DNA from: an uncultured Gammaproteobacteria bacterium
GTDB taxonomy: Bacteria; Patescibacteriota; Microgenomatia; Levybacterales; GWA1-39-11
Direction: 5' to 3'
Assembly: GCA_964651815.1 (NCBI GenBank)
Contig: CAZYWG010000010.1
Location: 1,377-65,376 of the forward strand
DNA: 64,000 nt
The notes beneath the pieces are model-generated. The model saw only the letters and a list, made by a program, of their open reading frames with translations, made no database searches and was not told the origin of the DNA. Position 1 is the stretch's first letter. Every line of letters starts with the position of its first letter. Both the position numbers and the translations under genes were made by a program. Below, one piece after another: positions 46,238 through 64,000 of the stretch.

Positions 46238-47572
46238 TTGCTTATTCTAAGTTCAAGGCATTTTATGCAAAAGTTGCGAGGCGGTATTGAATTTATTTTA
46301 TCTTCATCTAAATGGGCTTCGCTGCTTCTTATTATCATCGCGCTTTTACTTATTTCCTCAATATTTCTTAAAAATGGGAATAAAGCATCCGCACAAGAAG
46401 CCATTGCAAAACCCAATCTTACTGTCACTCAAGTTCAGCTCAGAAGAAACGCGTACCCTAATGCAAATTGTAGCAACGGAACATTAGTCACAGAGGGAAT
46501 GATGCTTAACCCCGGCGAGACTATAGAGGTCTGTATGGTTTATTCAAACAATGGAACTGCTGTTTCATCGTCGAATTTTAAAATTGACAATTACATAAAC
46601 CAAACAACACAACCCGCTGCCGGAACGCGGGGTTATCAATCATATCCTTATCCGCTTGGCTCACTTGGGCCAGGCGGAAGTTATACGTTGGAAATTGGAA
46701 GTATAGTCCCAAGCACTTCCATATGTTCATCTAATTGTCATGCCGGAGTATTTATTGATAGCGACAACACCGTAAGCGAGTCGAATGAAAGTGACAACTT
46801 TGCATATTCAGTTTCCTACAGTCTCCCAGCTGTTACTACTAGCTTCTGCGTTTCATGTGCTGCTCCACCCGATGGATGTAGTTATACAGGTGGCAGTTGC
46901 CAAAGCTGTGGCACTGTGGTCTGTACCACTTCAACTCCTGCGCCAACCTGTACCCCACGTCCTGCTTGTTCTCTACCCGGTGCTAATCCTATATGCGGAC
47001 TTGTAGAACTTACCGGCGGTGGAACATATTGTCCTCTTACCACACTTGCCCCTACAACAGTCGGCGGAAATGGTGCTCAATGTAGTGTTTCTCTAGCGCA
47101 GGGCGCAAGCCAGCATGGCTCATGTCAAAGTGCATATATTTGTCAGATTAACGCGGCATCTGCTTGTACAGATTCTATGCCAGGTTCCTGCACCGGTACT
47201 TGTGTTGTAACAACTACTCCTCCAATTTGCCCTCTTCATAATTCAGGTGACGCAAACTGCGACGGAAAAATTGATATAGAGGACTTTAACGTATGGAAAG
47301 CCGATTTTCTTTCTACTTTCGGAAGTGGTAATAATCCCGGTGATTCACTTGGACTAGCAGATTTCAACAATGACAATAAAGTGGATACTGATGATTTTAA
47401 TATTTGGCGGGATGGATTTATAATAAAAAGCGCTAAAACTGGCTCATGTAGTGCTGTACCTGACGCAAATGGCGTATGTCCGGCAGGATGTGTAAACTAC
47501 GGGAATCCACTTGGATGTGTAACACAACAATATTATGATGAATGCCAAACGCAAGGAGGCTGTCCCAAATGA
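46238..47572 (+). CDS. Secreted Cys-rich protein with two dockerin-like calcium-binding repeats
   Basis: DANCDGKIDIEDFNVWKADF and DFNNDNKVDTDDFNIWRDGF match the dockerin D-x-N-x-D-G-x-x-x-x-x-D pattern. About 40 Cys in a Thr/Pro/Gly-rich region. Confidence 0.5.
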   Translation: MLILSSRHFMQKLRGGIEFILSSSKWASLLLIIIALLLISSIFLKNGNKASAQEAIAKPNLTVTQVQLRRNAYPNANCSNGTLVTEGMMLNPGETIEVCMVYSNNGTAVSSSNFKIDNYINQTTQPAAGTRGYQSYPYPLGSLGPGGSYTLEIGSIVPSTSICSSNCHAGVFIDSDNTVSESNESDNFAYSVSYSLPAVTTSFCVSCAAPPDGCSYTGGSCQSCGTVVCTTSTPAPTCTPRPACSLPGANPICGLVELTGGGTYCPLTTLAPTTVGGNGAQCSVSLAQGASQHGSCQSAYICQINAASACTDSMPGSCTGTCVVTTTPPICPLHNSGDANCDGKIDIEDFNVWKADFLSTFGSGNNPGDSLGLADFNNDNKVDTDDFNIWRDGFIIKSAKTGSCSAVPDANGVCPAGCVNYGNPLGCVTQQYYDECQTQGGCPK

Positions 47573-47598: not shown

Positions 47599-50118
47599 AT
47601 GGAAAATAATATAAAAGTACATTTACCAAATATAGATACACCAAATGTTTTAAAACAACTTGGGAGATTTAAATTTTTAATAGGTGTTGTGGTTTTGGCA
47701 ATTTTGGCAATCTCAATTCCTTTGACTCTAAATCAAGTTAAAAAATTCCAGGAAAGCCGCTCCCATGCCGCCGCAGGTGAGGTCTCCATAAAGTTAACCC
47801 CATATGGAGAACCATTCCATGTCGGTGACCGTGTTTCATTGGTGGCTACTGTAGAAGATCAAAATCCAAATTATGACATTTCAGCAATTGATATAACAAT
47901 TGATTACGATAAAAATCTATTGGAACCCATGCCTATATGTGCAACTCCTGAATCCGGACCGCCACCTACTACCCCAGTGGAAGGTTGTCCCGCCGGACAA
48001 ATTGTTACACAAGAGGTCTTTGATACTAACGGCTTGGGTTTTACTACTATAGTTAAAAATATAAATAAAGATACCGGCACAGTTCATTATGTAGGTGTTA
48101 ACCCCACTTCACAGATACGAAATGGCGGAGTTGGTAAAGCTGTTACATTTGGAGGTCTCAACTTTAAAGCAAAAGCGCCCGGGAGTGCCACTGTCGGCTT
48201 TTCAAATATTCACATAAACGCAGCGGGAGTTACGGGTGCCCTTCCAATTGATACAACCAACACAAAAATCGGCACATACACAATTAGCACCGGGGCACAA
48301 ACTATCAGAGAATACATGAAAGGTAATAGTGGTAAACATATTGTAACTTTTAAATGCGACTCAAACTGCAATGGGCTCACCGGGCAATCAATTCCGCTCG
48401 CCATAATTCAGGATACAGCTGACATGCTAAAGGGATATTATGACAATGACACCACAAAAACCGTGCGCCTTTTCAACGCACCAGGACTTGACGGTAATGA
48501 ATCCACATTCTCTCTTGCCACAGGGTCTGACGTTGCATCCACTATCATTCTTACCGGTTCTGCCAAATTGTCAGACGGTACATTACATGGAGACGCAAGA
48601 ACTAGCTCCGGCCAAATTCTTGAATGGGAAATGGACTCCTCCACTGGAACTACGTCTCCGGACTTACGAGGAAATTACAGACTTGCCGGAACCTGTGTCA
48701 CTGGCTGTACCGGAGATTTTATACATATTATGAAAATTACAGCCATGGACGGTGAAGTATTTTCAGGAACCGGATATTATATTGCTGATCCGTCAATAAC
48801 TTGGACAGTAACAGGAACCGTAAATCCCGCCACCAAAGTAGTCCTATTTCATATAGTCTATACCGGAACAACTGCAGGTTACTCATCAGAATTCACGGGT
48901 ACTTTAAAGAGCGATGGAAGCATGTCTGGGACTAACACTTCAAGCCAAAACCAAACCGGCACATGGATTTTAACACCTTTAAAAAGCCTAAAAGGTCTTT
49001 ACAATTTAGATGCCACCTGCACAATAAATTGTACAGGTGATTATATTCATACTGTGAATATTACGGATGAAAATATAGACACAGGAACCTTTTCCGGAAA
49101 AGGAATCTATAATGGCGATACTTCAGTTACGTGGGATATTACAGGTACTGAAAATTGGGTCAATAAAACTATGACTTTCCACTTAAATTACACTGGCACA
49201 GGCGCCGGCTATAAAGCAGATGGAACAGGGAAAATCCGTGATGACGGAACTATGGATGGAACTGACACCACTAGCCAAAACCAAACCGCCAATTGGAAAA
49301 TGACACCTATTAAACCTACTCACTGTGGAGGAAATACTGCAAATCCGCTCACTTGCCAGGCCGGCCAAGTTTGTATTCCAGTTCCAGGGCAAAATGCACC
49401 TGCGGGGGATGTTGGCGGAATTTGTGTCGTCTCCGAACAACCACAGTCATGCACAGATGATTCTTCATGTCCAGCAGGATACACCTGCAATGTAGTTGCA
49501 GTTGCGGGAGCTGTACCTGGCACAAATGGCACAGGTGGAGTTAACAGTTCTGAATTAAAACAGTGCGTACTCACAGGTGGAACGTCATTAAGCCTTTCTT
49601 TGAAGCTTCCTGGTGTAGGCAATGGCGCTGCCAGCCTGCAACTTAATGCAAACCCTAAAAGACTAGAAAGGGGTGTAACTATAGTTTTGTCTAATTCACA
49701 AAATCAGCAATTGGAATCTGTCACTGGAAAATTACTCTACGATAGGACAAGTGGCTTATATAAAGGAATTATAAATCTCGGCAAAACTATACAAACGGGC
49801 GCATATCTTATAAAAGTCAGTGTTGACAATAGCTTGCGCAAATCCCTACCTGGAATCCAAAATATTACGGTAGACACAATCAATCAGAGTTCAACCATAG
49901 AATTTCTTCAGGGGGATATAGTTGCAAGTGACGGAACGGCACAGCAAGATAACGTTATAGATGTAGCCGACTATACAACATTCCTTGCGTGCTACCGCAA
50001 AGCAACATCGTGTACAGCGGAAATTAAATCAAGGGCGGATTTCACAGATGATGGTGTAGTTGACGATAAGGACCTGAACATCCTTTATACTGCCTTTAAG
50101 GCAAGACAAGGAGATTAA
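47599..50118 (+). CDS. Large surface protein with an N-terminal cohesin-like segment, two internal about 105-aa tandem repeats, and a C-terminal dockerin-like repeat
   Basis: IDITIDYDKNLLEP is cohesin-like. The repeat units start RGNYRLAGTCVTGCTGDFIH... and KGLYNLDATCTINCTGDYIH.... C-terminal DFTDDGVVDDKDLNILYTAF is dockerin-like. Confidence 0.5.
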   Translation: MENNIKVHLPNIDTPNVLKQLGRFKFLIGVVVLAILAISIPLTLNQVKKFQESRSHAAAGEVSIKLTPYGEPFHVGDRVSLVATVEDQNPNYDISAIDITIDYDKNLLEPMPICATPESGPPPTTPVEGCPAGQIVTQEVFDTNGLGFTTIVKNINKDTGTVHYVGVNPTSQIRNGGVGKAVTFGGLNFKAKAPGSATVGFSNIHINAAGVTGALPIDTTNTKIGTYTISTGAQTIREYMKGNSGKHIVTFKCDSNCNGLTGQSIPLAIIQDTADMLKGYYDNDTTKTVRLFNAPGLDGNESTFSLATGSDVASTIILTGSAKLSDGTLHGDARTSSGQILEWEMDSSTGTTSPDLRGNYRLAGTCVTGCTGDFIHIMKITAMDGEVFSGTGYYIADPSITWTVTGTVNPATKVVLFHIVYTGTTAGYSSEFTGTLKSDGSMSGTNTSSQNQTGTWILTPLKSLKGLYNLDATCTINCTGDYIHTVNITDENIDTGTFSGKGIYNGDTSVTWDITGTENWVNKTMTFHLNYTGTGAGYKADGTGKIRDDGTMDGTDTTSQNQTANWKMTPIKPTHCGGNTANPLTCQAGQVCIPVPGQNAPAGDVGGICVVSEQPQSCTDDSSCPAGYTCNVVAVAGAVPGTNGTGGVNSSELKQCVLTGGTSLSLSLKLPGVGNGAASLQLNANPKRLERGVTIVLSNSQNQQLESVTGKLLYDRTSGLYKGIINLGKTIQTGAYLIKVSVDNSLRKSLPGIQNITVDTINQSSTIEFLQGDIVASDGTAQQDNVIDVADYTTFLACYRKATSCTAEIKSRADFTDDGVVDDKDLNILYTAFKARQGD

Positions 50119-50239: not shown

Positions 50240-50890
50240 ATGCCTAAAAAAACTACAGTTCTTATAGCAATTCTTGCAGTTGTCACAGTGGTTCTTTTGG
50301 GTCTTGCGCTTATCCAGAGCCAAAAACAAAATACACTTATGACAAGTATCTCGCCTACTCCAAAACCGGTTGAAAAAACAGCCAAAATTTTCTTTAACCC
50401 TGGGACGTGGGATTCAACTTCTGCTACAACTCCAACTGCGTCAGTTGACATCATTATAGACTCTGGAAATAGTGCTCTAGCAGGTGCGCAAGTAGAACTT
50501 CAATATGATCCAAAAGCACTTAGTAATGTAAAAGTTGCGCCAGACGTGAGTACAAACAGTTTTTTTGGTGGCACGGCCAACGTTTTATTTAATGAAAATA
50601 CACAAAGCTCAGGAAAAGTTGAATTTGCTATCGGAATTCCTCCTACTGGGACCGCAAAAAAGGGCTCGGGAAAAATTGCAACATTATCATTTCAAAAATT
50701 ACCGGGCACAACAGAGGCTTCTACTACTATAGTTTTCCTTAACAAAACCTTGGTCTTAATGCTTGATTCTTCACAATCCGTCTTGAAAGATACAACTCCT
50801 CTCATGATAACGCTTGGACAAGCACAACCCAACAAATATCTCCCTCCAACAACCCAGGCACCTTCCAAATCTACCGCCCCTTCTTATTAA
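50240..50890 (+). CDS. Membrane-anchored cohesin-like domain protein (minimal scaffoldin-like)
   Basis: Signal anchor, then SVDIIIDSGNSALAGAQVELQYDPKALSNVKV...GKIATLSFQKL, the type-I cohesin beta-sandwich pattern. Confidence 0.45.
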   Translation: MPKKTTVLIAILAVVTVVLLGLALIQSQKQNTLMTSISPTPKPVEKTAKIFFNPGTWDSTSATTPTASVDIIIDSGNSALAGAQVELQYDPKALSNVKVAPDVSTNSFFGGTANVLFNENTQSSGKVEFAIGIPPTGTAKKGSGKIATLSFQKLPGTTEASTTIVFLNKTLVLMLDSSQSVLKDTTPLMITLGQAQPNKYLPPTTQAPSKSTAPSY

Positions 50891-50980: not shown

Positions 50981-51052
50981 GGGTCGCTAGTTCATCGGTA
51001 GAACGCTTTCCTGATAAGAAAGAGGTGCTAAGTTCGACTCTTAGGCGACCCA
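50981..51052 (+). tRNA. tRNA-Ile (anticodon GAT)
   Basis: Hand-folded: acceptor GGGTCGC/GCGACCC, D-arm GTTC/GAAC with GG, anticodon stem CTTTC/GAAAG with loop CTGATAA, T-arm CTAAG-TTCGACT-CTTAG, discriminator A. No CCA encoded. Confidence 0.85.
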
Positions 51053-51077
51053 CACTGAAAAATGTTTCATTTTTAAG

Positions 51078-51110
51078 TAGCCCAAGCATTTTAATGCTTG
51101 GGCTACTTCT
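51078..51110 (+). terminator. Perfect 13-bp hairpin (GTAGCCCAAGCAT-ttta-ATGCTTGGGCTAC) downstream of tRNA-Ile; a weak U tract (TTCT) follows
   Basis: Read directly. Putative terminator or processing hairpin. Confidence 0.45.
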
Positions 51111-51239
51111 AAACCAGACGAAGCATCATTCTGGAACGTACGCTTAAACAACGTTATTTTCGATTATTATAGAACTCAAACTCTTGACAACAACTTCATT
51201 CGTCGCTTAAGCTAGATAAACATTAGGGAATATTTTCTT

Positions 51240-52859
51240 ATGAAAAAAAAACCGCTATATATTTCTGTTGTCTTTTTAATTGCTTCACTGGTCGCGATTT
51301 TCCTTGATAAATTTTCTGATTTAACAACTATTTTTGAGATCCTTTCCGTACTCATATTAGTTTCAATTATTCTTCTTAGGGTAAATATTAAAAGGCTAAA
51401 GTTTAACGTGTTAAACAACCCTATTTCAAGCTCCATTCTTTTATTCTCTCTTTCTCTTTTTATTATCCTTCTAATTACTTCAACCGGCGCATTTTTTAGT
51501 CCTCTCCTTATTACGCTTCACATTACAACTCTTTGTATAGCTTTTCTGCTTTCATTTCCGCTTGCTATGGTATTTTTGTTTTCCGGAGTTCTTGCACTAT
51601 CTATACATTCTTATACAATTTATGCTTCACACGCGGCTACTTTTGACCCTGCACTACTTATAATTCAGCTGGCATCAATAGTTGGAATCATACCTTTTTC
51701 CTCAATTGCGGCAACACGTTACCATGTTCGTGAGAAAATTGCAGATTATTTTTTTGCAGAACTATCCCTCAGTAAATCGGAAGAAAGTTTGATTCTTGAT
51801 AATATTGCCGAGGGAGTTATAACTATGAATAGAAAATTTTCTATAGTCAAAATTAATAAAATTGCGGAAAACTTGTCCGGATTTAAACCTGAAGAATTAG
51901 CGGAAAAAGATTTTTTTGAAGTTTTTAAATTATATGACATTAAAAAAGATTTAATTACAAAAGATCAATTTCCGATACATGACCTTCTCAACCATCAAAC
52001 AGGATTTTCAGAATCGGGTCTTTTTATGCAAAAAAAAGACAGCGAGCTTTTTAATATAGATTTTAAATTTTCATCAGTTGTTGGGGCTGAAGGAAAAATT
52101 GAGGCTTTTTTGTTTGTTTTTAATGAAAGGCAAAGAAACTTGGCGAGCTCCTTACCCGTTTCTGTTTTGCAAGGAAGTTTTGATAAATTTCAACGCTTAA
52201 TTAGCAGCTTAAATGAAAACATTACAACTCTAGAACAAAATTCCGACCTGTCAAGCAAGGATATAGTTACAAATCTCAATAAAAACTCAAAAAGGATGCT
52301 CCATGCATATAAAAATCTTCATACGCTTTACGAACTTTCAATGGGTGAAATTCCAGGACTTCTCTCAGACCTTGATGTAGGTAAAACAGTTGTTAAAATG
52401 ATTGATGAAGCGGGAGATCTTGCAAAACAATATAATGTATCCTTAATCAACTCCGCACCAATTGCACCCTCTCTTCCAATTAAAACTAACAAAATTATTT
52501 TTGAAGAAGCTATTGGGAAAATAATTGAGCTTGGAATTTTTATTGCCTCTTCTTCTCAAGATCAATTTATAATTGTTTCCATTGGATCCTCCCAAGATAA
52601 TATTTTTGTTTTTGTGAAAGCGGCGGCTTACGAAAATTTTCCTTGGTCCGCCGCGGACGAACTGTTAAAACCGTTTTTTGGGACGCTTTCTGATACACAC
52701 GAGTTATCAGAGGCAAGTGGACTTGAAGGATATCTTGCAGACCGCCTTCTTAAGGAAAAAGGAATATCAGGAGGAATAACAGCGGCAAAATTCGAAGACG
52801 GACTAAACCATCCCCAGCTTATTCTCACTGTTATTTTACCAAATTCCGAAAGTACATAA
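51240..52859 (+). CDS. Membrane sensor protein with a PAS domain and a degenerate histidine-kinase-like C-terminus
   Basis: 6 TM. LILDNIAEGVITMNRKFSIVKINKIAENLSGFKPEELAEKDF is PAS-like. G1/G2 ATPase boxes are degenerate. Confidence 0.45.
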   Translation: MKKKPLYISVVFLIASLVAIFLDKFSDLTTIFEILSVLILVSIILLRVNIKRLKFNVLNNPISSSILLFSLSLFIILLITSTGAFFSPLLITLHITTLCIAFLLSFPLAMVFLFSGVLALSIHSYTIYASHAATFDPALLIIQLASIVGIIPFSSIAATRYHVREKIADYFFAELSLSKSEESLILDNIAEGVITMNRKFSIVKINKIAENLSGFKPEELAEKDFFEVFKLYDIKKDLITKDQFPIHDLLNHQTGFSESGLFMQKKDSELFNIDFKFSSVVGAEGKIEAFLFVFNERQRNLASSLPVSVLQGSFDKFQRLISSLNENITTLEQNSDLSSKDIVTNLNKNSKRMLHAYKNLHTLYELSMGEIPGLLSDLDVGKTVVKMIDEAGDLAKQYNVSLINSAPIAPSLPIKTNKIIFEEAIGKIIELGIFIASSSQDQFIIVSIGSSQDNIFVFVKAAAYENFPWSAADELLKPFFGTLSDTHELSEASGLEGYLADRLLKEKGISGGITAAKFEDGLNHPQLILTVILPNSEST

Positions 52860-52881
52860 AGTTTTTAAAAGCAAAGGCTTC

Positions 52882-52911
52882 TTGACAATTGCATAATTTT
52901 CGTTTCATAAT
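52882..52911 (+). promoter_or_regulatory. Sigma70-like promoter TTGACA–17–TCATAAT upstream of the GH5 gene (TTG start at 52938, short leader)
   Basis: Hexamers and spacing read directly. Confidence 0.4.
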
Positions 52912-52937
52912 GAATTCAAGGCATACTTTTCACAACC

Positions 52938-54452
52938 TTGAAGAATTTATTAACGCACTACAGAAAATCCATCAATCCCCCATATGGCGGAAAAGATTAT
53001 CCCGCTATCGCAGCAACCTTATTGTTTCTTCTAGTTTCATTAGTTGTAATAATAAGTCTTCCCAATAAGCTAAACCAAAACGCTTATCCAAAAAGCGGCT
53101 CTGCACAAACTGTTACAAACAGAATAACATGGCAAGGAAACAACTGGTATATTCACGGCGCAAACGTTCCATGGTACAACTGGGGGTGTGATTTTGGGTG
53201 TAACTCAACAAATGGGAAAAGCGGCGGCGTTTCGAACAACCTAAGCAATCTCACTGTAGCATTCCAACAGGCAAAAAATTCAGGAGTTCATGTTTTAAGG
53301 TGGTGGGTTTTTCCGGGTGATCCGTGGCAAATCACGCGTGACAGCGCGGGCCCAACCGGAATTGATCCTGCCGTATATCCTGATTTTGATGCGGCTTTAA
53401 ATCTTGCAAACCAATATGATATGTACTTTAATTTTATGTTGTTTTCTGCACCCACTGCTATGCCAAGTGCATGGGAGACTGATACAACCCAGAGAGGCAA
53501 ATTAGTTCAAGCGCTCAGCACTCTTTTTGCGCATTATGCCGGCAATCCAAGAATACTGTCTTGGGAAATTTACAACGAACCGGAAAATGACATTTGGAAT
53601 AATAGGATAGCTCAACAACCCGTTGTTGATACCGGTACTGCTATTGCAACTGCAGTCCACTCAAGTTCTCCAGGGACGCTTGTCACGGTAGGAAGTTTAT
53701 TTGCTGATGGAATGAAAATGTGGCTAAATGCTGGACTTGACTACTATTCTCCTCACTGGTATGACTACATGAGCGGTGGCGATTATTGCATGATTTGTCA
53801 CAATTATAGTTATTATTCTGCTTGGGGAGTAACAAAACCAATTGTAGTTGGTGAATTTTATTCGGGAACAAGCGCAACGACACCGACATCTTCAAACAGG
53901 TATGATTATTGGTATAACAACGGCTATGCTGGCGCGTGGGCTTGGTCATTATTCCCAAGTCATACTAGCGACGGTTTGCAAATTGATTTTACTGCTGCAA
54001 CAAATTTTGCTTCTCAACATGCAGATATTGGGCCAATTGCCGGATTTTCCTCAACCCCAACGCCTACTCAGGCCGTATCCTTGACACCTACCCCCGCAAT
54101 CTCACAGGCACCATCTTCTACTCCCACACCATCGCCAAGCCTTACTCCTGTACCGACAGTAGGATCAAATGACGCAACCGCTCCAACTGTGACTATCACC
54201 TCGCCTTTAGCCGGCTCAACTGTAGCTGTTAGGAAGAATGTAACAATTCAAGCAACTGCCTCTGACAACGTTGGAGTTTCGAGGGTAGAATTCTATATCA
54301 ATGGAACGCTGACCTGTACCGACATTTCGAGCCCCTACTCTTGTTCTTGGAAAGTTCCTGGCTCAAAGAACAGAACTTACAAATTGTCTGCCAAGGCGTC
54401 GGATGCTGCCGGTAATAATTCAACAAGCTCAATTAGTGTTACTGCAAGATAA
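52938..54452 (+). CDS. Glycoside hydrolase family 5-like (cellulase/mannanase clan GH-A) with a C-terminal Ig-like domain. Signal-anchored with an N-terminal YRKSINPPY motif.
   Basis: WEIYNEPEN (GH5 acid/base NEP motif), then a Thr/Pro linker and a 95-aa Ig-like domain shared with four neighbours. Confidence 0.65.
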   Translation: MKNLLTHYRKSINPPYGGKDYPAIAATLLFLLVSLVVIISLPNKLNQNAYPKSGSAQTVTNRITWQGNNWYIHGANVPWYNWGCDFGCNSTNGKSGGVSNNLSNLTVAFQQAKNSGVHVLRWWVFPGDPWQITRDSAGPTGIDPAVYPDFDAALNLANQYDMYFNFMLFSAPTAMPSAWETDTTQRGKLVQALSTLFAHYAGNPRILSWEIYNEPENDIWNNRIAQQPVVDTGTAIATAVHSSSPGTLVTVGSLFADGMKMWLNAGLDYYSPHWYDYMSGGDYCMICHNYSYYSAWGVTKPIVVGEFYSGTSATTPTSSNRYDYWYNNGYAGAWAWSLFPSHTSDGLQIDFTAATNFASQHADIGPIAGFSSTPTPTQAVSLTPTPAISQAPSSTPTPSPSLTPVPTVGSNDATAPTVTITSPLAGSTVAVRKNVTIQATASDNVGVSRVEFYINGTLTCTDISSPYSCSWKVPGSKNRTYKLSAKASDAAGNNSTSSISVTAR

Positions 54453-54500
54453 CATATTCAATAGTCTAGAAACTAGCTACTGGCAAAATACGGCAGGGAA

Positions 54501-56747
54501 ATGAAATTGAAACAACTTATACAAACATATAGAAAAGGGATTAATCCACCATATTCTAAAAAAGATTTCCCAATTGTTGCAGGTACTCTACTCGTTTTGC
54601 TTATTGTTACTCTTGTTGTAGTTATTCTTCCTAATCAATATAAGAGTAAACAAACAGAAAACACTCATGCACAGGAAGTAAAAAAGATTGAGGTACAAGC
54701 TGCACCAGACGAAATTTTAGTAAAATTTAAACCAGGGGCAACAGAACGGATTAAAAATTCTGTCAGGCGGGCATTTGGACTAACCAAAAAAGATGAACTT
54801 ACGCAAATTGGTGTTGAAGTATTGAAAACAACTCCGGTGAACCGGGATCACATCGCCGAAGCGTTAAATAAACGACCTGAAGTTCAGTTTGCGCAACTCA
54901 ATTTTATTACTAAACCTGCAATTGTACCAAATGACACTAATTATTCTACACAATGGCACTTACCTGATATTTCTGCAGATAGAGCTTGGGATGTTGCAAA
55001 AGCTACTGGAATCCTAATAGGAATGTGTGATACAGGAGTAAATCAAGTTCCGGATCTAGCCCCGGTCTTGCGGACAGATCTTGGTTGGAACGCGGTTGAT
55101 GGATCTAGCAACTTCAGTGACCCCATAGGGCACGGAACCGGTACGGCGGGTGCGGCTGCGGCAGCAACAAACAATGCTCTTGGGGTAGCTGGCGTTGCTT
55201 GGGGAGCACAAATTATACCTGTTAGAGTCAGCAATCTTTCGGATGGTTCCGCGTATACAAGTGATATTGCAAAATGTATTAATTATTCGGCAGATCATGG
55301 AGCAAAAGCTATCAATGCTTCCTACGGTGTAGCCGGCGACTCAACTATCAATTCAGCCGGACTTTATGCACAGAGCAAAGGAGCATTGCTTACTATTTCT
55401 GCCGGAAATAGTGGTTTGGATCCAGGATGGTCTAACTTGCCAGGTATTATTGCAGTTTCCGCTATGGACACTCTTAACAATCCTGCTACCTTTACAAATT
55501 TCGGAAATTTTATTGATGTGGCAGCCCCAGGTGCAAGTATTTATACTACAAAAAATGACGGAAACTATTGGTATACTGCAGGTACGTCTTTTAGCGCGCC
55601 GATTGCAGCCGGAGTGATTGGCCTTATTTTCGGCGCAAAACCCTCATTAACTGCAGCTCAGGCTCAGGATATTTTGTTTAAAAATTCGGATGATCTTGGG
55701 ATCTCTGGATGGGATAAATATTTTGGATGGGGACGAGTTAATGCGCTCCGCACTGTAGATGCAGCCCTGGGTCTTGCACCGGACACTACGGCACCCATTG
55801 TTTCCATTACCAATCCTATAACAAATTCTACTGTTTCCGGCCAATCTGTATCAATTAGTACACAAGCTTCAGATAATTTTGGAGTAACTAAAGAAGAACT
55901 TTATATAGACAACGCTCTAATTGGAACAACGACCTGGTTCTTCTCCGGTGGAACTGCATCGTTCACTTGGGACTCAAGAACCGTTCCAAATGGATCACAT
56001 ACTATCATCGCCAAAGCTTATGATGGGGCAGATAATGCTGGAACTTCAACATCTGTAATAATCAATGTTGTGAATTCTTCCGATATCACTGATCCCACAA
56101 TTTCAATCACAAGTCCGGCAAACAACACCACTGTTTCCGGAACTATAAATGTTGCAGCAATAGCATCAGATAACATTGGTGTAGTAAAAGTAACTTTTGA
56201 TAAGTTTGGTGCACCGTTACAAACATTTACTAACCCTCCTTATTCTTTTTCCTGGGACACAAATGCCGCATTGGCGAGCCAATGTCCAACCACATGTATA
56301 ACAAATATTCAGGCGACAGCATATGATGCCGCTGGAAATTATGCATCTGCAAACGTAGGTATAACTTATAACAATAGTGGTGTAACTACCTCTCCTACAG
56401 CAACACCAACAATTGGTTTATCTCCCACAAATACTCCCATTCCATCCCCTACACCTTCCTTAACAGATCATACTTCGCCAACTGTAACTATCTCCTCTCC
56501 TCTCGCGGGGTCAACAGTAGCGGTTCGTTCAAATGTAAATATCCAAGCAACAGCTTCTGACAATATTGGAGTTGCCCGAACAGAGTTCTATGTCAATGGA
56601 ACTCTCACTTGTAGCGATACGAGCTCACCCTACTCTTGTTCTTGGAAAGTGCCGGGAGCTAAGAATAAAAGCTATTCGATTAGTGCAAAAACGTATGATG
56701 CTGCTGGAAATAATTCAACAAGCTCAATTAGTGTAACGGCAAAATGA
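54501..56747 (+). CDS. Subtilisin-like serine protease (peptidase S8) with I9 propeptide and three C-terminal Ig-like domains. N-terminal YRKGINPPY motif.
   Basis: Catalytic triad contexts GMCDTGVN (Asp), HGTGTAG (His), GTSFSAPIAAG (Ser). Confidence 0.8.
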   Translation: MKLKQLIQTYRKGINPPYSKKDFPIVAGTLLVLLIVTLVVVILPNQYKSKQTENTHAQEVKKIEVQAAPDEILVKFKPGATERIKNSVRRAFGLTKKDELTQIGVEVLKTTPVNRDHIAEALNKRPEVQFAQLNFITKPAIVPNDTNYSTQWHLPDISADRAWDVAKATGILIGMCDTGVNQVPDLAPVLRTDLGWNAVDGSSNFSDPIGHGTGTAGAAAAATNNALGVAGVAWGAQIIPVRVSNLSDGSAYTSDIAKCINYSADHGAKAINASYGVAGDSTINSAGLYAQSKGALLTISAGNSGLDPGWSNLPGIIAVSAMDTLNNPATFTNFGNFIDVAAPGASIYTTKNDGNYWYTAGTSFSAPIAAGVIGLIFGAKPSLTAAQAQDILFKNSDDLGISGWDKYFGWGRVNALRTVDAALGLAPDTTAPIVSITNPITNSTVSGQSVSISTQASDNFGVTKEELYIDNALIGTTTWFFSGGTASFTWDSRTVPNGSHTIIAKAYDGADNAGTSTSVIINVVNSSDITDPTISITSPANNTTVSGTINVAAIASDNIGVVKVTFDKFGAPLQTFTNPPYSFSWDTNAALASQCPTTCITNIQATAYDAAGNYASANVGITYNNSGVTTSPTATPTIGLSPTNTPIPSPTPSLTDHTSPTVTISSPLAGSTVAVRSNVNIQATASDNIGVARTEFYVNGTLTCSDTSSPYSCSWKVPGAKNKSYSISAKTYDAAGNNSTSSISVTAK

Positions 56748-58207
56748 TTAGAGAGATGAAAAAGTTATTAAAAGATTATAGAAAGGCAATTAATCCTCCG
56801 TACTTAAAAACGGATGTTCCGATTATAAGTGCTACCCTGCTCATTCTCCTGCTCGCAGTCATCCTGATCCTAAATTTACCGGATGTATTCAATTCAAAAA
56901 AAATTACTGAATCTCATGCGGCAGTTGATTGCGGAACATCACTTCAGACAAAAATTGATGGGGCTCTATCGGGTTCCACAGTGGACCTGACCGGTTGCAC
57001 ATATAGCGGGACTAATATTCAGATTTCAAAACCCTTAACAATAATCGGGGGAAGTTTTAACTCAACTTCAACTGATCGCTGGAGCAATGCTTTTGTAATT
57101 AATTCAGATAACGTAACTGTTCAGAAATGGACATTTGCTGGAGGTGGTCAAATTATTGCGGATCTTGGACACTCAAATGTAAATATTCTCAACAACAGTT
57201 TTTCCAATCAATTAGGCTCCTCTGTAGCGCTCTGGGGAGCATCAAACAACGTAATAATTGACGGAAATAAAATTGTTCAATCTGTAACAAATCAAGTTTC
57301 ACCTATAATAGCAAGAGCATCGGAAGATTGCTCTGTCTATCTTAAAAACTTAATAATAAGAAACAACTATATGGATCAGGGACCGGCCGGGGTAGGTTGG
57401 TTTGGTATAGAACTAAAATGTAATGATGGTGTCCTAATTGAAAATAATACGCTCCATGGTGGAGAAACCTTAGTCTCTCTCCCGGATACTAATAATGTTC
57501 AGGTTAAAAATAATACATTTGACATGACCGGAGATGCTTATTGGGGGGTGGAAATAGCCCATGCAAACAACGTGACAGTCGCTGGAAATACATTTTTCGG
57601 AGATGGGCCTTCTGGCACAGATCATGCGGTATCAGAAAACAGCGGCAGTCAAAACTCCTATATATCCGGTAATAATGTGCATGATATTAGAACTCTTGTT
57701 GATGTAGGTGGGGATTATATCTCAATAACTGATAATTGCCTGGTAAATGTGTTGAGGGTAACGGAATATGATAGTTCGGGAACTCATGTAATATTGTCAA
57801 ACAACGGTCCGTGTCCTTCTCCTTCTGTTACACCAACGGGTGTAATTACTACTCCATCAACGACTCCGACACCCGCACCAACTGTGACTGCATTCCCAAC
57901 TCCCGCACCAACCGTGACCTCAAACGACACAACATCCCCTAGCGTTAGGATAGATTCCCCGCTTAACGGATCAATAATAAAAGCAAAATCTACAACGTCA
58001 ATTACCGCGTCGGCTTCAGATAATTTGGGAGTGACAAGAGTTGAATTTCTAGTCAACGGTACGCTCATCTGTTCGGATACCACTTCGCCTTACACGTGCT
58101 CATGGAGAGTACCAGGTTCAAGAAATAGAACATATACTATTTCTGCCAAAGCATATGACGCCGCCGGAAATAATTCAACTAGTTCTATTAGTGTCACGGC
58201 AAAGTGA
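56744..58207 (+). CDS. Right-handed parallel beta-helix (pectate-lyase-like) protein with a C-terminal Ig-like domain. N-terminal YRKAINPPY motif. ATGA overlap with the S8 gene.
   Basis: Repeated NN(x)F/I...G..N beta-helix rungs (NVNILNNSF, NNVIIDGNKIV, IIRNNYM, IENNTLHGG, VKNNTFDMTGD, VAGNTFFGDG). Confidence 0.5.
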   Translation: MIREMKKLLKDYRKAINPPYLKTDVPIISATLLILLLAVILILNLPDVFNSKKITESHAAVDCGTSLQTKIDGALSGSTVDLTGCTYSGTNIQISKPLTIIGGSFNSTSTDRWSNAFVINSDNVTVQKWTFAGGGQIIADLGHSNVNILNNSFSNQLGSSVALWGASNNVIIDGNKIVQSVTNQVSPIIARASEDCSVYLKNLIIRNNYMDQGPAGVGWFGIELKCNDGVLIENNTLHGGETLVSLPDTNNVQVKNNTFDMTGDAYWGVEIAHANNVTVAGNTFFGDGPSGTDHAVSENSGSQNSYISGNNVHDIRTLVDVGGDYISITDNCLVNVLRVTEYDSSGTHVILSNNGPCPSPSVTPTGVITTPSTTPTPAPTVTAFPTPAPTVTSNDTTSPSVRIDSPLNGSIIKAKSTTSITASASDNLGVTRVEFLVNGTLICSDTTSPYTCSWRVPGSRNRTYTISAKAYDAAGNNSTSSISVTAK

Positions 58208-58300
58208 GGTTAACTCTTGACAAAATTACAGTATTAATACAACAATTAACTTGTTAAGCATTTGAGAAAAACTTATTTTCGACTAATTAAATAAAAAACC

Positions 58301-59620
58301 GTGGAAGAACAAAAACTTAAATTACCAAAAAAAGATTCCTCAGTTCAATTTCACGCTTTTGCTTATGTTATAGTTGGAGTTTTTATTGGTCTCATAGTAG
58401 GTTTCTTTAGTGCGTTTTTGTATCTTAAAAACATCGCGATCTCTCCAAACGTTGCAATAACTAAGACTGAAGAAAGTGCTCCTGCAGAACTTCCACCACA
58501 AGCTGCACTTCACGTACCGGTGTGCATTCCAAGAGGACCACAAGCTGTGAAATGTCATGCCCAAGTGGTAATCAATAAAAGTGGACAACCTGATTTGACA
58601 AGCGTACCTCAAGGATATGGCCCCGTACAATTCCAGACAGCATATAGCCTTTTGGGGAAAAGTTCTTCCGGAAGAATTGTTGCAATAATTGATGCATATG
58701 ATAACCCAAATATTAAGCCTGATCTAGACACATATAGCGGTGCGTTTGGGCTTCCTGTTCTCCCAACATGCCAAACAACAATTAAAGATTCCGCAACTCC
58801 TTGTTTTCAAAAAATTGATCAAAGAGGGGGAACATCCTACCCAGCTGCCGATTCTTCATGGGCTCTTGAAATTGCACTGGATACTGAAGTAGTACACGCT
58901 GCCTGCCCCGACTGTAAAATTCTTCTTGTGGAGGCAGACAGTAATACTTATGACAGTTTGTTGGCGGCAGAGGATAAGGCTGTTGCTCTTGGAGCTTCTG
59001 TTGTCTCAAACTCCTACGGTTCAGGCGAATTCAGCTCAGAAACATCATTTGACAGCCATTTCAACGTTGCGGGGGTAGCTTTCACCTTCTCCTCAGGAGA
59101 CGCGGGTTACGGGAGTACATATCCCGCAGCCTCACGTTATGTCACAGCGGTTGGCGGGACTACCCTTCTTTTAAACTCTAATAATACGTATAAAAATGAA
59201 ACTGCCTGGAGCGGCGCAGGAAGCGGTTGTTCAAATTTTGAAATTAAGCCAACATGGCAAAGTGATAAAGGATGCCCTATGAGGACAATTGTTGATGTCT
59301 CAGCTGATGCTGACCCTTCAAGTGCTGCTGCAGTTTATGATACGGTTCCTTACGGCGGGACGGGTCAAACAGGTTGGTTCCAGGTTGGCGGGACAAGCCT
59401 TGCTTCACCGCTCGTCGCTGCTGTATTCGCACTCAAAGGAGTGCCACCAGGCACACAAGCAAACTCTCTCCCATATCTTTCCGCTACCACCGGATTAAAT
59501 GACGTGACTAGAGGTTCAAACGGTGGGTGTCCTCAAAAAAACAAATATTTATGTAGTGCAGTCGTGGGCTATGATGGACCAACGGGTCTCGGGACTCCAA
59601 AGGGAATAGGTGCATTTTAA
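58301..59620 (+). CDS. Peptidase S8/S53 (sedolisin-like) family serine peptidase, membrane-anchored
   Basis: SGDAGYGSTYPAASRYVTAVGGTTL and GGTSLASPLVAAVFALKG (Ser nucleophile), typical of S53/S8. Confidence 0.55.
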   Translation: MEEQKLKLPKKDSSVQFHAFAYVIVGVFIGLIVGFFSAFLYLKNIAISPNVAITKTEESAPAELPPQAALHVPVCIPRGPQAVKCHAQVVINKSGQPDLTSVPQGYGPVQFQTAYSLLGKSSSGRIVAIIDAYDNPNIKPDLDTYSGAFGLPVLPTCQTTIKDSATPCFQKIDQRGGTSYPAADSSWALEIALDTEVVHAACPDCKILLVEADSNTYDSLLAAEDKAVALGASVVSNSYGSGEFSSETSFDSHFNVAGVAFTFSSGDAGYGSTYPAASRYVTAVGGTTLLLNSNNTYKNETAWSGAGSGCSNFEIKPTWQSDKGCPMRTIVDVSADADPSSAAAVYDTVPYGGTGQTGWFQVGGTSLASPLVAAVFALKGVPPGTQANSLPYLSATTGLNDVTRGSNGGCPQKNKYLCSAVVGYDGPTGLGTPKGIGAF

Positions 59621-59643
59621 TCTCTTCTCATAGAAGAAAATAT

Positions 59644-60012
59644 TTAGATAAGTTCTTCTAGCTCCTCAGGTGCATCATGGTCTTCAAAAACTCCTTGCTC
59701 ATCCCAAATAAGCGCTTGAAGTAGATATTCTTTCAGAAGACGAAGACGTTTTATTTCTTTTAGCAATTTTGTTGCTTTTTGAGGGTGGTTGCGGACTAAT
59801 TGATAGAAAAGCGATTCGAGTTGCTGTAATCTATTTGAAATTGCCTGATGAGTTGCAATAATTTTTCCCTGGCGGCTCCTCTTTCTGTATGTTTTAAATT
59901 CACGTAACCGCTGCCACTCGCCGGCCTGAATTTCGCGATTCAAATCTGAATCTACAACATCATCGCGCTTTTCTTGAGTACTGGACTTTTCTTCTTTATT
60001 TTTTTTCTCCAT
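59644..60012 (-). CDS. Hypothetical charged protein (122 aa)
   Basis: ORF only. Confidence 0.3.
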   Translation of the reverse strand: MEKKNKEEKSSTQEKRDDVVDSDLNREIQAGEWQRLREFKTYRKRSRQGKIIATHQAISNRLQQLESLFYQLVRNHPQKATKLLKEIKRLRLLKEYLLQALIWDEQGVFEDHDAPEELEELI

Positions 60013-60015
60013 GAA

Positions 60016-60222
60016 TTATCTTACTACTTCTGCAAGTTTTTCCGGAAGGTCTATTCCTGTACGCACAAGCCCAGAACCCACAGCGCCCCCCATTTTACGT
60101 GCGATGTTGTAATAAATCCACTTATCTTTCCTGCGAATTGCCGCAAGATAATCAAAAATATCCCAGTTTTGTGTATTGTATTCTCTTTCCATATTATTGT
60201 TTAATTTTTTGGCTCCCGCCAT
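60016..60222 (-). CDS. Hypothetical small protein. Start is ambiguous (Met at 60222 or 60192), and it overlaps a second small minus-strand ORF at 60201..60356 encoding a 51-aa membrane peptide.
   Basis: Two overlapping small frames; neither verified. Confidence 0.25.
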   Translation of the reverse strand: MAGAKKLNNNMEREYNTQNWDIFDYLAAIRRKDKWIYYNIARKMGGAVGSGLVRTGIDLPEKLAEVVR

Positions 60223-60427
60223 CGTCCAATAAAAAATATCGCAAGCCCAACTGCTACCATCGGATAGTCAACGCTTATAACACCCAAAAGCGTGAGTGCG
60301 CCTCCTAGTCCTTTTTCAAAAATTGATTCAGCTTTTCTGTAGGTTTCTTTTGCCATTTGATGTAATTATATAACTTGAACAAAAATAATCTTCACGAATA
60401 AATAACAATATTGTGATAAAGTAGATT

Positions 60428-60682
60428 TTAGGCGTGCGCTGGCATTACTTGGGCTCGTGTATTTCTTCCACCAGCTTCCTCTGGATTAAGCTTGCGATGT
60501 AAAAGGTACCTCATAACTCCAAGCCCTGCGCCAACAATTGGCAAAAACTGGGCTGCCAACCATCCATACAACACAAAACCAATAGCAATCGATACATCGA
60601 GAGGACCCTTTCCCTCAATTTCGCGAACCGTGTTTTTTACTCGACCCCAAAAGCTATCAGTATGCGAACCTCTCTCTTGCAT
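60428..60682 (-). CDS. Small membrane protein (84 aa)
   Basis: One or two hydrophobic helices; ORF only. Confidence 0.3.
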   Translation of the reverse strand: MQERGSHTDSFWGRVKNTVREIEGKGPLDVSIAIGFVLYGWLAAQFLPIVGAGLGVMRYLLHRKLNPEEAGGRNTRAQVMPAHA

Positions 60683-60779
60683 TAAAGAATATTATACTAC
60701 CTATAGGATACTTTTAGCAAATCGCGGGCATCCTAAATGTATTGCTTGTTAATATTTCTTTGACTATACTATATACATT

Positions 60780-62753
60780 ATGGATTATAGAATTCCTCCG
60801 CCTGGACAAAGCTATAATTCATTCCACGAAAAAGAAACTAAAAAAATAGACCGCGAAATTAATAAAAGCTTTATTTTCCTGACTATCTTCTCTATTTCCA
60901 TCTTTGTGATATCCACAATCTTAATCAAACAGAGCCAGGATTTAAGACAAAGAGCTGAAACCCCTTCTATTAACCAAGACGCGGCCCCTGACGAGATTCT
61001 TCTTAAATTTAAGCCGGGGGCAAAACAAAATATTAAGAATAAAATACTCTCGCTACATGCGCTCTCTGTCAAAGAAGAAATTAAACAAATTGATGTAAAA
61101 GTAGTAAAAGTTGCGCCGACTTCAAGAGATTACGTTGTTGAAGCGCTGTCTCATAACCCGGCAATAGACTTTGCAGAAACAAACAAAATTCTTAAAACTC
61201 AACTTGTTCCAAATGACCCTTATTTCAGCCAGGAATGGCACCTTGCTGATATACAAACACCCGCTGCATGGGATAGCACAAAAGCCACGGGTGTTCTAAT
61301 TGCGATGTGTGATACTGGAGTTAATCAAGTTGCTGACCTGACGCCGGCTTTACGGACAGATCTTGGCTGGAATGCAGTTGACGGAACGAGTGACTGGTCT
61401 GATCCAATTGGACATGGGACAAGCACGGCGGGAGTAATAGCTGCCGCAACAGATAATGGAATAGGTGTTGCAGGAGTCGCCTGGGGAGCACAAATTATTC
61501 CAGTTAGAGTAAGTAATTTATCCGGGGGAAATGCATACATAAGCGATATTATAAAATGCATAAATTATGGCGCAGATAATGGAGCACGCGTCATTAATGT
61601 GTCCTATGATGTTGCAGGAGATAGCGGCGTTGATGCGGCCGGACAATACGCCCAAAGCCGCGGCGGACTACTTTTTGCTGCCGCAGGCAATAGTGCATCA
61701 GACCCTGGTTATCAAAATTACCCTGGTATTATTGCCGTATCGGCAACTGCCGGAACAAATCTTACAGGGTTCTCTAGCTTTGGAAATTTTATTGATCTTT
61801 CAGCGCCTGGAACAAATATATATTCAACAAAATTTGACGGTACATTTTGGCCTGTCAGTGGAACTTCTGTTGCGTCGCCTGTTGCAGGTGGTGTTGCGGC
61901 ATTAGTATTTGGAATAAAACCGCAATTTACCGCTCTGCAAGTGCAAAATATTCTCTTCCAAAACTCTGACGACCTTGGAGCGCCGGGATACGATGTGCAA
62001 TTTGGCTGGGGAAAAATTAATGCGGCAAAAGCAGTTGCAGCGGCTTTAGGAACTACACCAACTGACACCACCGCACCTGCTACAAGTATAAGCTCACCTA
62101 CCAGCGGAAGTACAATAAGTGGACTAGTCCCTATCAACGCTGACGCAACAGATAATGTTGGGGTTGCAAGAGTTGAGCTCTATTTTGAAAACCCCGGCGG
62201 AACTCCATACGCAGTTGACACCACGTCCCCGTATTCATTTATTTGGGATACAACTCAGGTATCGAATGGCCAGCATCTCATATATACAAAGGCATATGAC
62301 ACTGCCGGTAACACTACTACGTCAAACGGCATTTCATTGACCGTAAATAACACTCTGCCCACACCAACGCCTACTATAACACCAACTTTTGCTCCAACCT
62401 CAACTTTAGCCCCAACTCAAACTCCATTTCCAACGGCAACAATTAAACCAACACCCACTACCACTTCACAAGATAAAACTGCGCCGGTTGTTACTATAAT
62501 TTTTCCACTGGCAGGTTCAACTGTTGGGGTTAGAACAAATATTAATATTACGGCAACAGCAATAGATAACGTGGGAGTAACAAAAGTAGAATTTTATGTA
62601 AACGGAACATTAAATTGTTCTGATTCCGCATCTCCTTACACATGTGGCTGGAAAGTACCCGCATCAAAGAATAAAACCTATACTCTTGCGGCAAAAGCAT
62701 ATGACGCAGCAGGAAATTTCTCAGGGGGAAGCATTAGCGTGACCGCAAAATAA
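60780..62753 (+). CDS. Subtilisin-like serine protease (peptidase S8), paralog of 54501..56747, with two C-terminal Ig-like domains
   Basis: AMCDTGVN / HGTSTAG / GTSVASPVAGG triad. Same I9 propeptide pattern (ILLKFKPGAKQNIKN). Confidence 0.8.
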   Translation: MDYRIPPPGQSYNSFHEKETKKIDREINKSFIFLTIFSISIFVISTILIKQSQDLRQRAETPSINQDAAPDEILLKFKPGAKQNIKNKILSLHALSVKEEIKQIDVKVVKVAPTSRDYVVEALSHNPAIDFAETNKILKTQLVPNDPYFSQEWHLADIQTPAAWDSTKATGVLIAMCDTGVNQVADLTPALRTDLGWNAVDGTSDWSDPIGHGTSTAGVIAAATDNGIGVAGVAWGAQIIPVRVSNLSGGNAYISDIIKCINYGADNGARVINVSYDVAGDSGVDAAGQYAQSRGGLLFAAAGNSASDPGYQNYPGIIAVSATAGTNLTGFSSFGNFIDLSAPGTNIYSTKFDGTFWPVSGTSVASPVAGGVAALVFGIKPQFTALQVQNILFQNSDDLGAPGYDVQFGWGKINAAKAVAAALGTTPTDTTAPATSISSPTSGSTISGLVPINADATDNVGVARVELYFENPGGTPYAVDTTSPYSFIWDTTQVSNGQHLIYTKAYDTAGNTTTSNGISLTVNNTLPTPTPTITPTFAPTSTLAPTQTPFPTATIKPTPTTTSQDKTAPVVTIIFPLAGSTVGVRTNINITATAIDNVGVTKVEFYVNGTLNCSDSASPYTCGWKVPASKNKTYTLAAKAYDAAGNFSGGSISVTAK

Positions 62754-62769
62754 ATTAAAATCCATCAAA

Positions 62770-63065
62770 TATTTGAGGCGCGGAAGGGAATCCCTTCACT
62801 TCGCTTCGCGCAGGGTAAACGAACCCTCGCATAAAAGTTTTGTCCTAGAAATTGCAGATGTTTTAATTGAGACACGGAAGGGAATCGGACCCTCGCATAG
62901 AGGTTTTGCAGACCCCCGCGTTACCACTTCGCCACCGTGTCAAAAACATCTTGCAATTTCAGGATCCCGTACATCTAAGTTAATTTTATCAAAATTAACA
63001 AGATGGTACTGGGACAGACTCCCGCGTTACCACACTTTCAGTGCCACCGCGCCATACAGGAATTC
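62770..63065 (-). repeat. Cluster of degenerate tRNA-derived fragments around the tRNA-Cys-like gene. A 5'-half-like copy (63020–63060) and a 3'-half-like copy (62776–62835) have complementary outer acceptor arms GGCGCGG/CCGCGCC.
   Basis: CCCGCGTTACCAC occurs twice on the plus strand; so does ACCCTCGCATA(R)AG(G)TTTTG; so does CGGAAGGGAATC. Confidence 0.45.
62869..62940 (-). tRNA. tRNA-Cys(GCA)-like gene (possibly pseudo). Cloverleaf has U73 discriminator, anticodon loop CUGCAAA, and GG in the D-loop, but C instead of U at position 55 of the T-loop.
   Basis: Hand-folded on the minus strand: GACACGG|TG|GCG-AAGTGGTAA-CGC|G|GGGGT-CTGCAAA-ACCTC|TATGC|GAGGG-TCCGATT-CCCTT|CCGTGTC|T. Confidence 0.45.
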
Positions 63066-63950: not shown

Positions 63951-64000
63951 AAAGGAGGTGATCCATCCTCAGCTTCGGCTAAGGATACCTTGTTACGACT
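63951..64000 (-). rRNA. rrs: 16S rRNA, 3'-terminal part only (gene continues beyond window end)
   Basis: Reverse complement reads ...AGTCGTAACAAGGTATCC...GGATCACCTCCTTT, i.e. the 1492R/1541R region with the anti-SD CCUCC. No 23S follows. Confidence 0.85.

Follow-up and report, generated by a model that had tools for sequence, protein, structure and literature searches.

Why should a GH5-like enzyme, two subtilases and a right-handed beta-helix protein, all encoded at 52.9-62.8 kb of a 64-kb stretch of contig CAZYWG010000010.1 (hereafter the window, meaning the whole of the DNA analysed), end in the same kind of immunoglobulin (Ig)-like domain? An earlier note on this DNA had described near-identical copies on five enzymes and had taken them as a sign of recent recombination within a horizontally mobile or recombinogenic island. 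We consider it probable, instead, that the locus is a modular cluster of exported hydrolases carried in native DNA, that its terminal domains are old paralogues of the Big_7 family with a tethering role, and that a single later exchange took place, between the GH5-like gene and the gene for the first subtilase, S8a.

The repeated C-terminal element is Big_7 (PF17957), the "bacterial Ig domain" of Pfam. Matches to this model (gathering cut-off 24.1 bits) were obtained for the GH5-like protein (83 bits, residues 416-485), S8a (163.5 bits in three stretches), the beta-helix protein (77.2 bits) and the second subtilase, S8b (117.6 bits in two stretches). An Ig-like domain of ~92 amino acids (aa) at the gene ends is therefore borne out, at 77-163 bits, as are the three copies claimed for one S8 protein and the two claimed for the other, for a total of seven copies in four proteins with one each in the GH5-like and beta-helix proteins. 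The count of five enzymes falls to four, as the S8/S53-like peptidase gene that lies between the beta-helix and S8b genes has no Big_7, and a decayed remnant sought downstream of it was not found. A six-frame motif scan detected no further copies elsewhere in the 64-kb window. Read from the N-terminus to the C-terminus, the proteins would follow one modular plan, consisting of a leader with the motif YRKxINPPY and a hydrophobic helix, a catalytic domain, a Pro/Thr-rich linker and a C-terminal Big_7, in which the catalytic slot would be variable and be filled by a GH5-like, S8 or beta-helix domain.

Relatives of these proteins were sought with full-length queries, as the isolated 94-aa domain yielded only three short proteins. 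The GH5-like protein itself is recorded in NCBI and Logan as P0004, on contigs of up to 65.8 kb, and the same study supplies two Logan contigs that match the window at 100% identity, one over 50999-59803 and the other over 50999-59568. Four homologues of the GH5-like protein (P0005, P0006, P0008 and P0026; 45-62% identity) end in a Big_7 with a pair of cysteines (Cys pair), and other homologues of the GH5 catalytic domain have FN3, dockerin, cohesin, TIG or PA14 modules at that end instead. On contig L085, also from the same study, a GH5 protein, a 281-aa protein and an S8 protein each end in a Cys-pair Big_7. The contig scan with the beta-helix protein returned mostly generic Big_7 matches from many phyla, with L032, a contig from a metagenome-assembled genome (MAG) of the Patescibacteria group, as the sole informative relative. 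Across the window and the metagenomic proteins, the partners of the C-terminal basic Cys-pair Big_7 include GH5, S8 and beta-helix proteins, metallopeptidases and proteins of unknown function. In neighbor-joining domain trees with bootstrap support, the Cys-pair terminal domains form a clade of their own (89%), and the domain shuffling proposed in the earlier note thus stands in an evolutionary sense, with one Big_7 subtype present on unrelated catalytic domains. Big_7 would have been joined to the different enzymes by duplication and shuffling before the sampled related genomes diverged, and the module would since have been inherited mostly along with each enzyme. Gain and loss of the module does happen, since an S53-like homologue on L008, a Candidatus Microgenomates MAG contig (4882-6498; 45% identical), has a Pro/Thr linker and a terminal Big_7, and the S53-like peptidase of the window has neither. 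The window protein ends exactly where this homologue runs on into the linker and Big_7; the Big_7 in question is without the Cys pair.

The assignment of this protein set to a Patescibacteria/Microgenomates-like lineage, in which the plan would be standard, follows the names of relatives (P0018, Candidatus Woykebacteria; L032, Patescibacteria group; L008, Candidatus Microgenomates) and not a marker-gene phylogeny. As a separate observation, two sortase genes lie directly upstream of the GH5 and Big_7 homologue P0008 (L082 8360-9892, L083 4636-6168), and P0008 is without an LPXTG-like C-terminal signal.

At their N-termini, the GH5-like, S8a and beta-helix proteins share the leader K.LL..YRK.INPPY..KD.P, followed by a hydrophobic helix of ~20 residues and then LPN, with an (S/T)xA-type motif ~10-14 residues further on; the likeness among the three genes is at the protein level only. 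The most likely function of the leader would be to direct Sec export. The N-terminal 60 residues are matched by no model of Pfam or NCBIfam, and a literature search for INPPY returned only unrelated matches. A degenerate DNA pattern for YRKxINPPY matched 54 times across 49 metagenome contigs; in ~38 cases the match falls at residues 8-22 of an open reading frame (ORF), with a hydrophobic helix after it. A profile of the three window leaders recovered 81 cluster representatives among 1.84 billion proteins, nearly all with the match at the N-terminus. Dozens of metagenomic multi-domain exported proteins have this leader (L032, L086-L133, P0128-P0149). Big_7 was detected in 19/33 leader proteins and dockerin in 13/33, in the company of enzyme domains that include S8, M11, M12, phytase, GH114, GH99, NHL and beta-helix, and six further leader proteins with other enzymes (P0128, P0130, P0131, P0133, P0147 and P0148) end in a Cys-pair Big_7. 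On L032, the leader is found on five genes in a run of seven, with different enzyme domains followed by Big_7 and then by dockerin repeats, and with two cohesin-like proteins encoded alongside.

In 32 loci with leader genes, no recurrent processing enzyme (sortase, signal peptidase or rhomboid) was found beside them, and the recurring neighbors were dockerin, Big_7 and mreB/mreC/PBP2 genes. The surroundings of leader clusters suggest that these tend to adjoin a cell-shape locus; PBP2-type transpeptidases were counted seven times, MreC four times and MreB three times on contigs L088-L133. Leader families appear to differ between gene sets. Adjacent genes on L085 (239-6407) share another leader, ESYNTILERMN.REN.KLLFSLAG, followed by a helix and NQ.QD.RQ.A, and S8b of the window has the post-helix motif QSQDLRQRAE of this L085-type leader.

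What the terminal domain does was approached through its structure and charge. The AlphaFold2 (AF2) model of the S8a tail is a seven-stranded beta-sandwich (predicted local distance difference test score 96.5), for which Foldseek returned 9kvu (E=4e-7, template modeling (TM) score 0.85) and 3pdd/3pdg (TM 0.82); the best matches, in sequence as well as in structure, are the Big_7 module "B1" of CelAly (9kvu) and, from Clostridium thermocellum CbhA, the X1/Fn3-like modules 3pdd, 3pdg and 3pe9. The model places the conserved Cys51 and Cys60 one on each strand of a single hairpin, and a disulfide between them is likely. In a hand-curated set, terminal copies have a mean net charge of +3.8 and an isoelectric point (pI) of 9.2 (n=20), compared with -4.5 and 4.3 for internal or dockerin-preceding copies (n=8; P=5e-5). 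A wider survey of 75 Big_7 domains in 47 fetched proteins, gathered by similarity to the window proteins, gave a mean charge of +3.4 for the 23 terminal domains, 18 of which have the Cys pair. Among the 52 non-terminal domains the mean was -3.9; the Cys pair is present in two, and a dockerin-like motif comes after 30. The terminal subtype also has a conserved W[KR]VP..[KR]N[KR] loop, and the last residue is K or R in 18/23 of the proteins with a terminal Big_7.

Taken with the known relatives of the domain, these properties make it likely that the terminal subtype tethers its enzyme to, or binds, an anionic polymer surface and replaces dockerin-based docking. In mechanistic terms, a basic, non-catalytic and probably disulfide-stabilized module would hold the enzyme at such a surface, which could be that of the bacterial envelope itself, of a host or of a substrate gel, and the terminal basic Big_7 would occupy the position that an acidic Big_7 plus dockerin takes in sister proteins.

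The closest parallel is B1 of the flavobacterial CelAly (PDB 9KVU), which belongs to the same family by hidden Markov model and has the same fold (34% identity). Like the terminal domain of the GH5-like protein, B1 is non-catalytic, has a basic surface and is appended to a GH5 enzyme, and it binds an anionic polysaccharide gel through that basic surface (PMC13235733). Unlike B1, the terminal Big_7 of the window proteins is the very last module, has a conserved Cys pair and is also found on proteases and a beta-helix protein; CelAly ends in a type IX secretion system (T9SS) sorting domain, whereas the window proteins end in Big_7. The X1/"fibronectin(III)-like" modules of the cellulosomal CbhA (3PDD, 3PDG, 3PE9) are a second parallel, with a sequence match at E=7e-18 and the same fold. 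As in CbhA-type cellulosomal enzymes, Big_7 precedes a type I dockerin in the sister proteins and cohesin proteins are encoded nearby, with dockerin on the neighboring gene product 46238-47572 and cohesin on that of 50240-50890 in the window. The four window proteins differ from cellulosomal enzymes in being without dockerin (no Pfam match to type I dockerin, PF00404, on any of them) and in that terminal copies are basic and dockerin-preceding copies acidic.

The likeness to the T9SS C-terminal domain and to surface-layer homology (SLH) or dockerin anchors is an analogy and not membership, the shared feature being a ~90-aa beta-sandwich at the extreme C-terminus that is common to unrelated hydrolases. 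T9SS Por secretion tail models (NCBIfam/TIGRFAM) gave no match at E<=0.1, and Patescibacteria are not known to possess an outer membrane or a T9SS. The leader, similarly, would work like the YSIRK-G/S and KxYKxGKxW signal peptides of Gram-positive bacteria, in which a short aromatic and basic motif in the N-region stands ahead of a hydrophobic helix on many exported proteins; the motif here is a different one, YRKxINPPY, and is without a Pfam or NCBIfam match.

Modular secreted hydrolases with accessory Ig-like modules (Big_7/X1) are well known. More useful is the wider pattern, in which a tiny-genome lineage of the candidate phyla appears to assemble many of its exported enzymes with a common leader and one of two alternative tails, a Big_7 that is acidic and followed by dockerin or a Big_7 that is basic and terminal. 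A bolder version, which we put forward tentatively and hold to be doubtful, is that the basic, always C-terminal Cys-pair Big_7 is a dedicated surface-retention tag of this Microgenomates-like lineage, an alternative to cohesin-dockerin that works together with an undescribed YRKxINPPY export leader marking the secretome and that keeps a whole set of proteases and glycosidases at an anionic surface, be it that of the bacterial envelope or that of a host cell. If the tail is a surface-binding tag and the leader a sorting signal, the two would be simple markers, readable from sequence, by which the surface proteome of these uncultured, probably host-dependent bacteria could be predicted, as well as direct targets for binding experiments.

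Several points weigh against the reading of the terminal domains as old paralogues with a tethering role. The domain trees rest on only ~92 columns, and orthology in the comparisons is assumed from the catalytic domains. The disulfide is deduced from strand topology and not from measured distances in the model. The sample behind the charge contrast is not unbiased, having been gathered by similarity to the window proteins, and two strongly basic Big_7 domains, at +10 (L121 6564-9155) and +9 (L123 1397-3988), are followed by dockerin. The proposed role is drawn from charge, position and the analogy to 9kvu, and Brunecky et al., in a 2012 study, reportedly (to go by the title) treat the CbhA X1 modules as stabilizers or spacers.

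The main functional rival to tethering is of this last kind, with the terminal Big_7 as a passive spacer or folding stabilizer, or as a remnant left by loss of a downstream dockerin, and with no binding role. That the closest solved relatives include the CbhA X1 modules, and that Big_7 stands between enzyme and dockerin in sister proteins, would fit such a role. A spacer at the extreme C-terminus would, however, space nothing, and terminal and internal copies differ systematically in charge, Cys pair, loop and final residue, a contrast that points to selection for a property of the terminal subtype's own. We therefore regard a purely passive role as unlikely.

The history of the copies was read from the 92 codons preceding each stop. 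The four terminal copies share 63-79% aa identity and 61-73% nucleotide (nt) identity in pairwise comparison, and the internal copies, in which neither the Cys pair nor the WKVPG motif occurs, reach only 33-48% identity with these, so that "near-identical" overstates the likeness. Synonymous-codon identity at conserved residues was then compared with what chance would give, taking the codon usage of 42 other genes of the window. Identical codons numbered 18 for the GH5-like and beta-helix tails (20.8 expected), 23 for GH5-like and S8b (23.6), 22 for S8a and beta-helix (22.3), 29 for S8a and S8b (24.6) and 28 for beta-helix and S8b (21.1). These five of the six pairs are at chance, and the copies concerned are thus alike at the protein level only, an outcome that the earlier note had itself named as telling against its reading. 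By that measure, recent recombination or gene conversion is mostly refuted. Most terminal copies would then have evolved independently until their synonymous sites were saturated.

The sixth pair, the GH5-like and S8a tails, is the exception. Encoded by adjacent genes, these two are the most similar (79% aa, 73% nt) and have 39 identical codons compared with 26.2 expected (P=0.0015). Their 3' ends agree at 84% of 62 nt and at ~90% of the final 40 nt, include an uninterrupted match of 26 nt and encode identical amino acids, so that the claim of almost identical last ~45 bp holds for this pair and not for the others. A run of 26 nt was reached in 633/20000 trials of a codon-column shuffle (P ~0.03, a marginal value before correction for the six pairs). 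Over the final 16 codons, 11/15 are identical compared with 5.0 expected, an enrichment that is not significantly above the other codons of these two tails (Fisher P=0.15; binomial P=0.05 relative to the rate within the pair). In the domain trees, the GH5-like tail pairs with the S8a tail at 95% bootstrap and with the tail of a GH5 orthologue at <1%. The excess of identical codons and this pairing over the GH5 orthologue tails suggest one past exchange between the adjacent tails, which would be a later exception to independent descent and which is not recent because the two have diverged at 27% of nucleotides.

Ongoing or recent gene conversion that homogenizes the terminal copies within the cluster, as the earlier note had it, draws on exactly these features of the GH5-like and S8a tails, namely their closeness, their excess synonymous identity, their 3' ends and their grouping. 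It is set against synonymous identity at chance in the other five pairs, nt identity of 61-65% in those pairs and only 73% in the best one, a 3'-end enrichment that is not significant against the remainder of the pair, and a 26-nt run at P ~0.03 without correction. The tail of the beta-helix protein, moreover, groups with that of P0131, also a beta-helix protein (63% bootstrap), and not with its cluster neighbors. We consider such conversion quite unlikely; of the recombination claimed, what would survive is the one older exchange. The positions of all features are collected in Table 1.

Table 1. Window coordinates of genes, protein modules and tRNA features in and around the cluster
Feature	Position	Strand	Remarks
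tRNA-Ile (GAT)	50981..51053	+	neighbor, not boundary, of the secreted-protein cluster
GH5-like (beta-mannanase-like) secreted enzyme	52938..54452	+	leader, catalytic domain, PT linker, terminal Big_7
Leader of GH5-like	52938..53111	+	
Pro/Thr/Ser-rich linker of GH5-like	54048..54173	+	67% P+T+S
Terminal Big_7 of GH5-like	54174..54449	+	basic, Cys pair
Subtilase S8a	54501..56747	+	leader, fervidolysin-like prodomain, S8 domain, 2 internal Big_7, PT linker, terminal Big_7
Leader of S8a	54501..54677	+	
Internal Big_7 copy 1 of S8a	~55773..56066	+	acidic, without Cys pair
Internal Big_7 copy 2 of S8a	~56070..56360	+	acidic
Pro/Thr/Ser-rich linker of S8a	56379..56468	+	
Terminal Big_7 of S8a	56469..56744	+	basic, Cys pair; copy used for the AF2 model
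Right-handed beta-helix protein	56744..58207	+	leader, beta-helix, PT linker, terminal Big_7; PF13229 and PF17957
Leader of beta-helix protein	56744..56926	+	
Pro/Thr/Ser-rich linker of beta-helix protein	57812..57928	+	
Terminal Big_7 of beta-helix protein	57929..58204	+	
S8/S53-like peptidase ("fifth enzyme")	58301..59620	+	N-terminal membrane helix; weak PF00082 match only; without Big_7
Subtilase S8b	60780..62753	+	different N-terminus, prodomain, S8 domain, 1 internal Big_7, PT linker, terminal Big_7
Internal Big_7 of S8b	~62052..62345	+	acidic, without Cys pair
Pro/Thr/Ser-rich linker of S8b	62352..62474	+	
Terminal Big_7 of S8b	62475..62750	+	
Degenerate fragment like 3' half of tRNA-Cys	62812..62842	-	alignment score 40 vs 15.6 +/- 3.0 in shuffles
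Intact tRNA-Cys (GCA)	62869..62941	-	
Degenerate fragment like 5' half of tRNA-Cys	63001..63049	-	alignment score 44 vs 17.1 +/- 3.0 in shuffles

The ORF list places five exported-enzyme genes on the same strand in the cluster. The first encodes a protein that matches GH5 mannanases among PDB sequences (2C0H, E=2e-14; 3VUP, 5.5e-12; 5Y6T, 5e-7) and shows NEP (WEIYNEPEND) and GEF (VVGEFYS) motifs as candidate sites of the catalytic Glu residues; PF00150 is present on many of its homologues and gave no match on the protein itself at E<=0.01. S8a matches PF00082 (142.7 bits; cut-off 21.8 bits) and PF22148, S8b matches PF00082 at 130.3 bits, and both translations show the DTGV, HGTG/HGTS and GTSFSAP/GTSVASP motifs of the Asp/His/Ser triad, which place them in peptidase family S8; their prodomains and catalytic parts are 61% identical in aa sequence. 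The first four genes are separated by 48, -4 and 93 nt, the beta-helix gene start overlapping the S8a stop, and no terminator-like sites were found in these gaps; a single operon fits because the gaps are short and without such sites. A sigma-70-type promoter with an 11/12 match lies at 52882-52911, 27 nt upstream of the GH5-like start, and promoter-like counts overall equal chance expectation. Ahead of S8b, the cluster is split by ~1.1 kb with four small ORFs on the opposite strand (59644-60682, -) of 122, 68, 51 and 84 aa, two of which look membrane-spanning, and for which no convincing Pfam or PHROGs family match was found.

Is the cluster, finally, a mobile island? The earlier note had seen it as bracketed by tRNA-Ile and tRNA-Cys-like fragments. 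The tRNA-Ile, one intact tRNA-Cys and two fragments are real, and they do not bracket the cluster. Neither fragment is callable as a tRNA, both lie within ~110 nt of the intact tRNA-Cys without spanning the cluster, and one possibility is that they are local decay products of a tRNA duplication. Relaxed ARAGORN searches around tRNA-Cys for extra tRNAs gave only poor intron-containing calls, which were rejected.

Composition was compared with that of 44 other window genes, and the five enzyme genes stay within +/-1.7 standard deviations on both measures, with z-scores of -1.3 to +1.4 for GC content at third codon positions (GC3) and of -1.7 to -0.1 for codon-usage distance; the flanking PAS gene (51240-52859) has a GC3 z-score of -1.9. 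The modestly higher total GC of the enzyme genes goes with the Pro/Thr/Ala/Gly-rich composition of their proteins. The cluster and the ORFs on either side, scanned with Pfam, NCBIfam and PHROGs, gave no integrase, transposase, recombinase or phage families, and no att-like direct repeats were found linking 50.9-51.3 kb with 62.7-63.1 kb. Genes for surface proteins of the same kind continue upstream of tRNA-Ile, and both the leader and the domain subtype are typical of the lineage. These results give no support to a mobile island, and the cluster is most probably native DNA. The tRNA genes at either end and the different gene neighborhoods of GH5 homologues on L082/L083 and L085, where synteny is not conserved, could be read in favor of horizontal acquisition of 51240-62753 as a tRNA-targeted genomic island of secreted enzymes; set beside native composition, missing mobility genes and repeats, and the continuing surface genes, this is very improbable. 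Synteny through the PAS protein was also tried, and the PAS kinase beside the GH5 homologue on L082 is only 25% identical to it over the PAS region, so that this candidate was rejected.

The genes upstream of tRNA-Ile comprise an SdrD_B-like gene (45558-46163), a gene for a CARDB and dockerin protein (46238-47572), a large surface protein of 839 aa (47599-50118) whose C-terminus resembles dockerin, and a protein with a cohesin domain (50240-50890). Their predicted products point to a cohesin-dockerin system in a Patescibacteria-like genome, a combination for which a literature search on cohesin and dockerin in Patescibacteria returned nothing specific. At the far end of the window, the 3' end of a bacterial 16S rRNA gene (63951-64000, -) runs off the edge.

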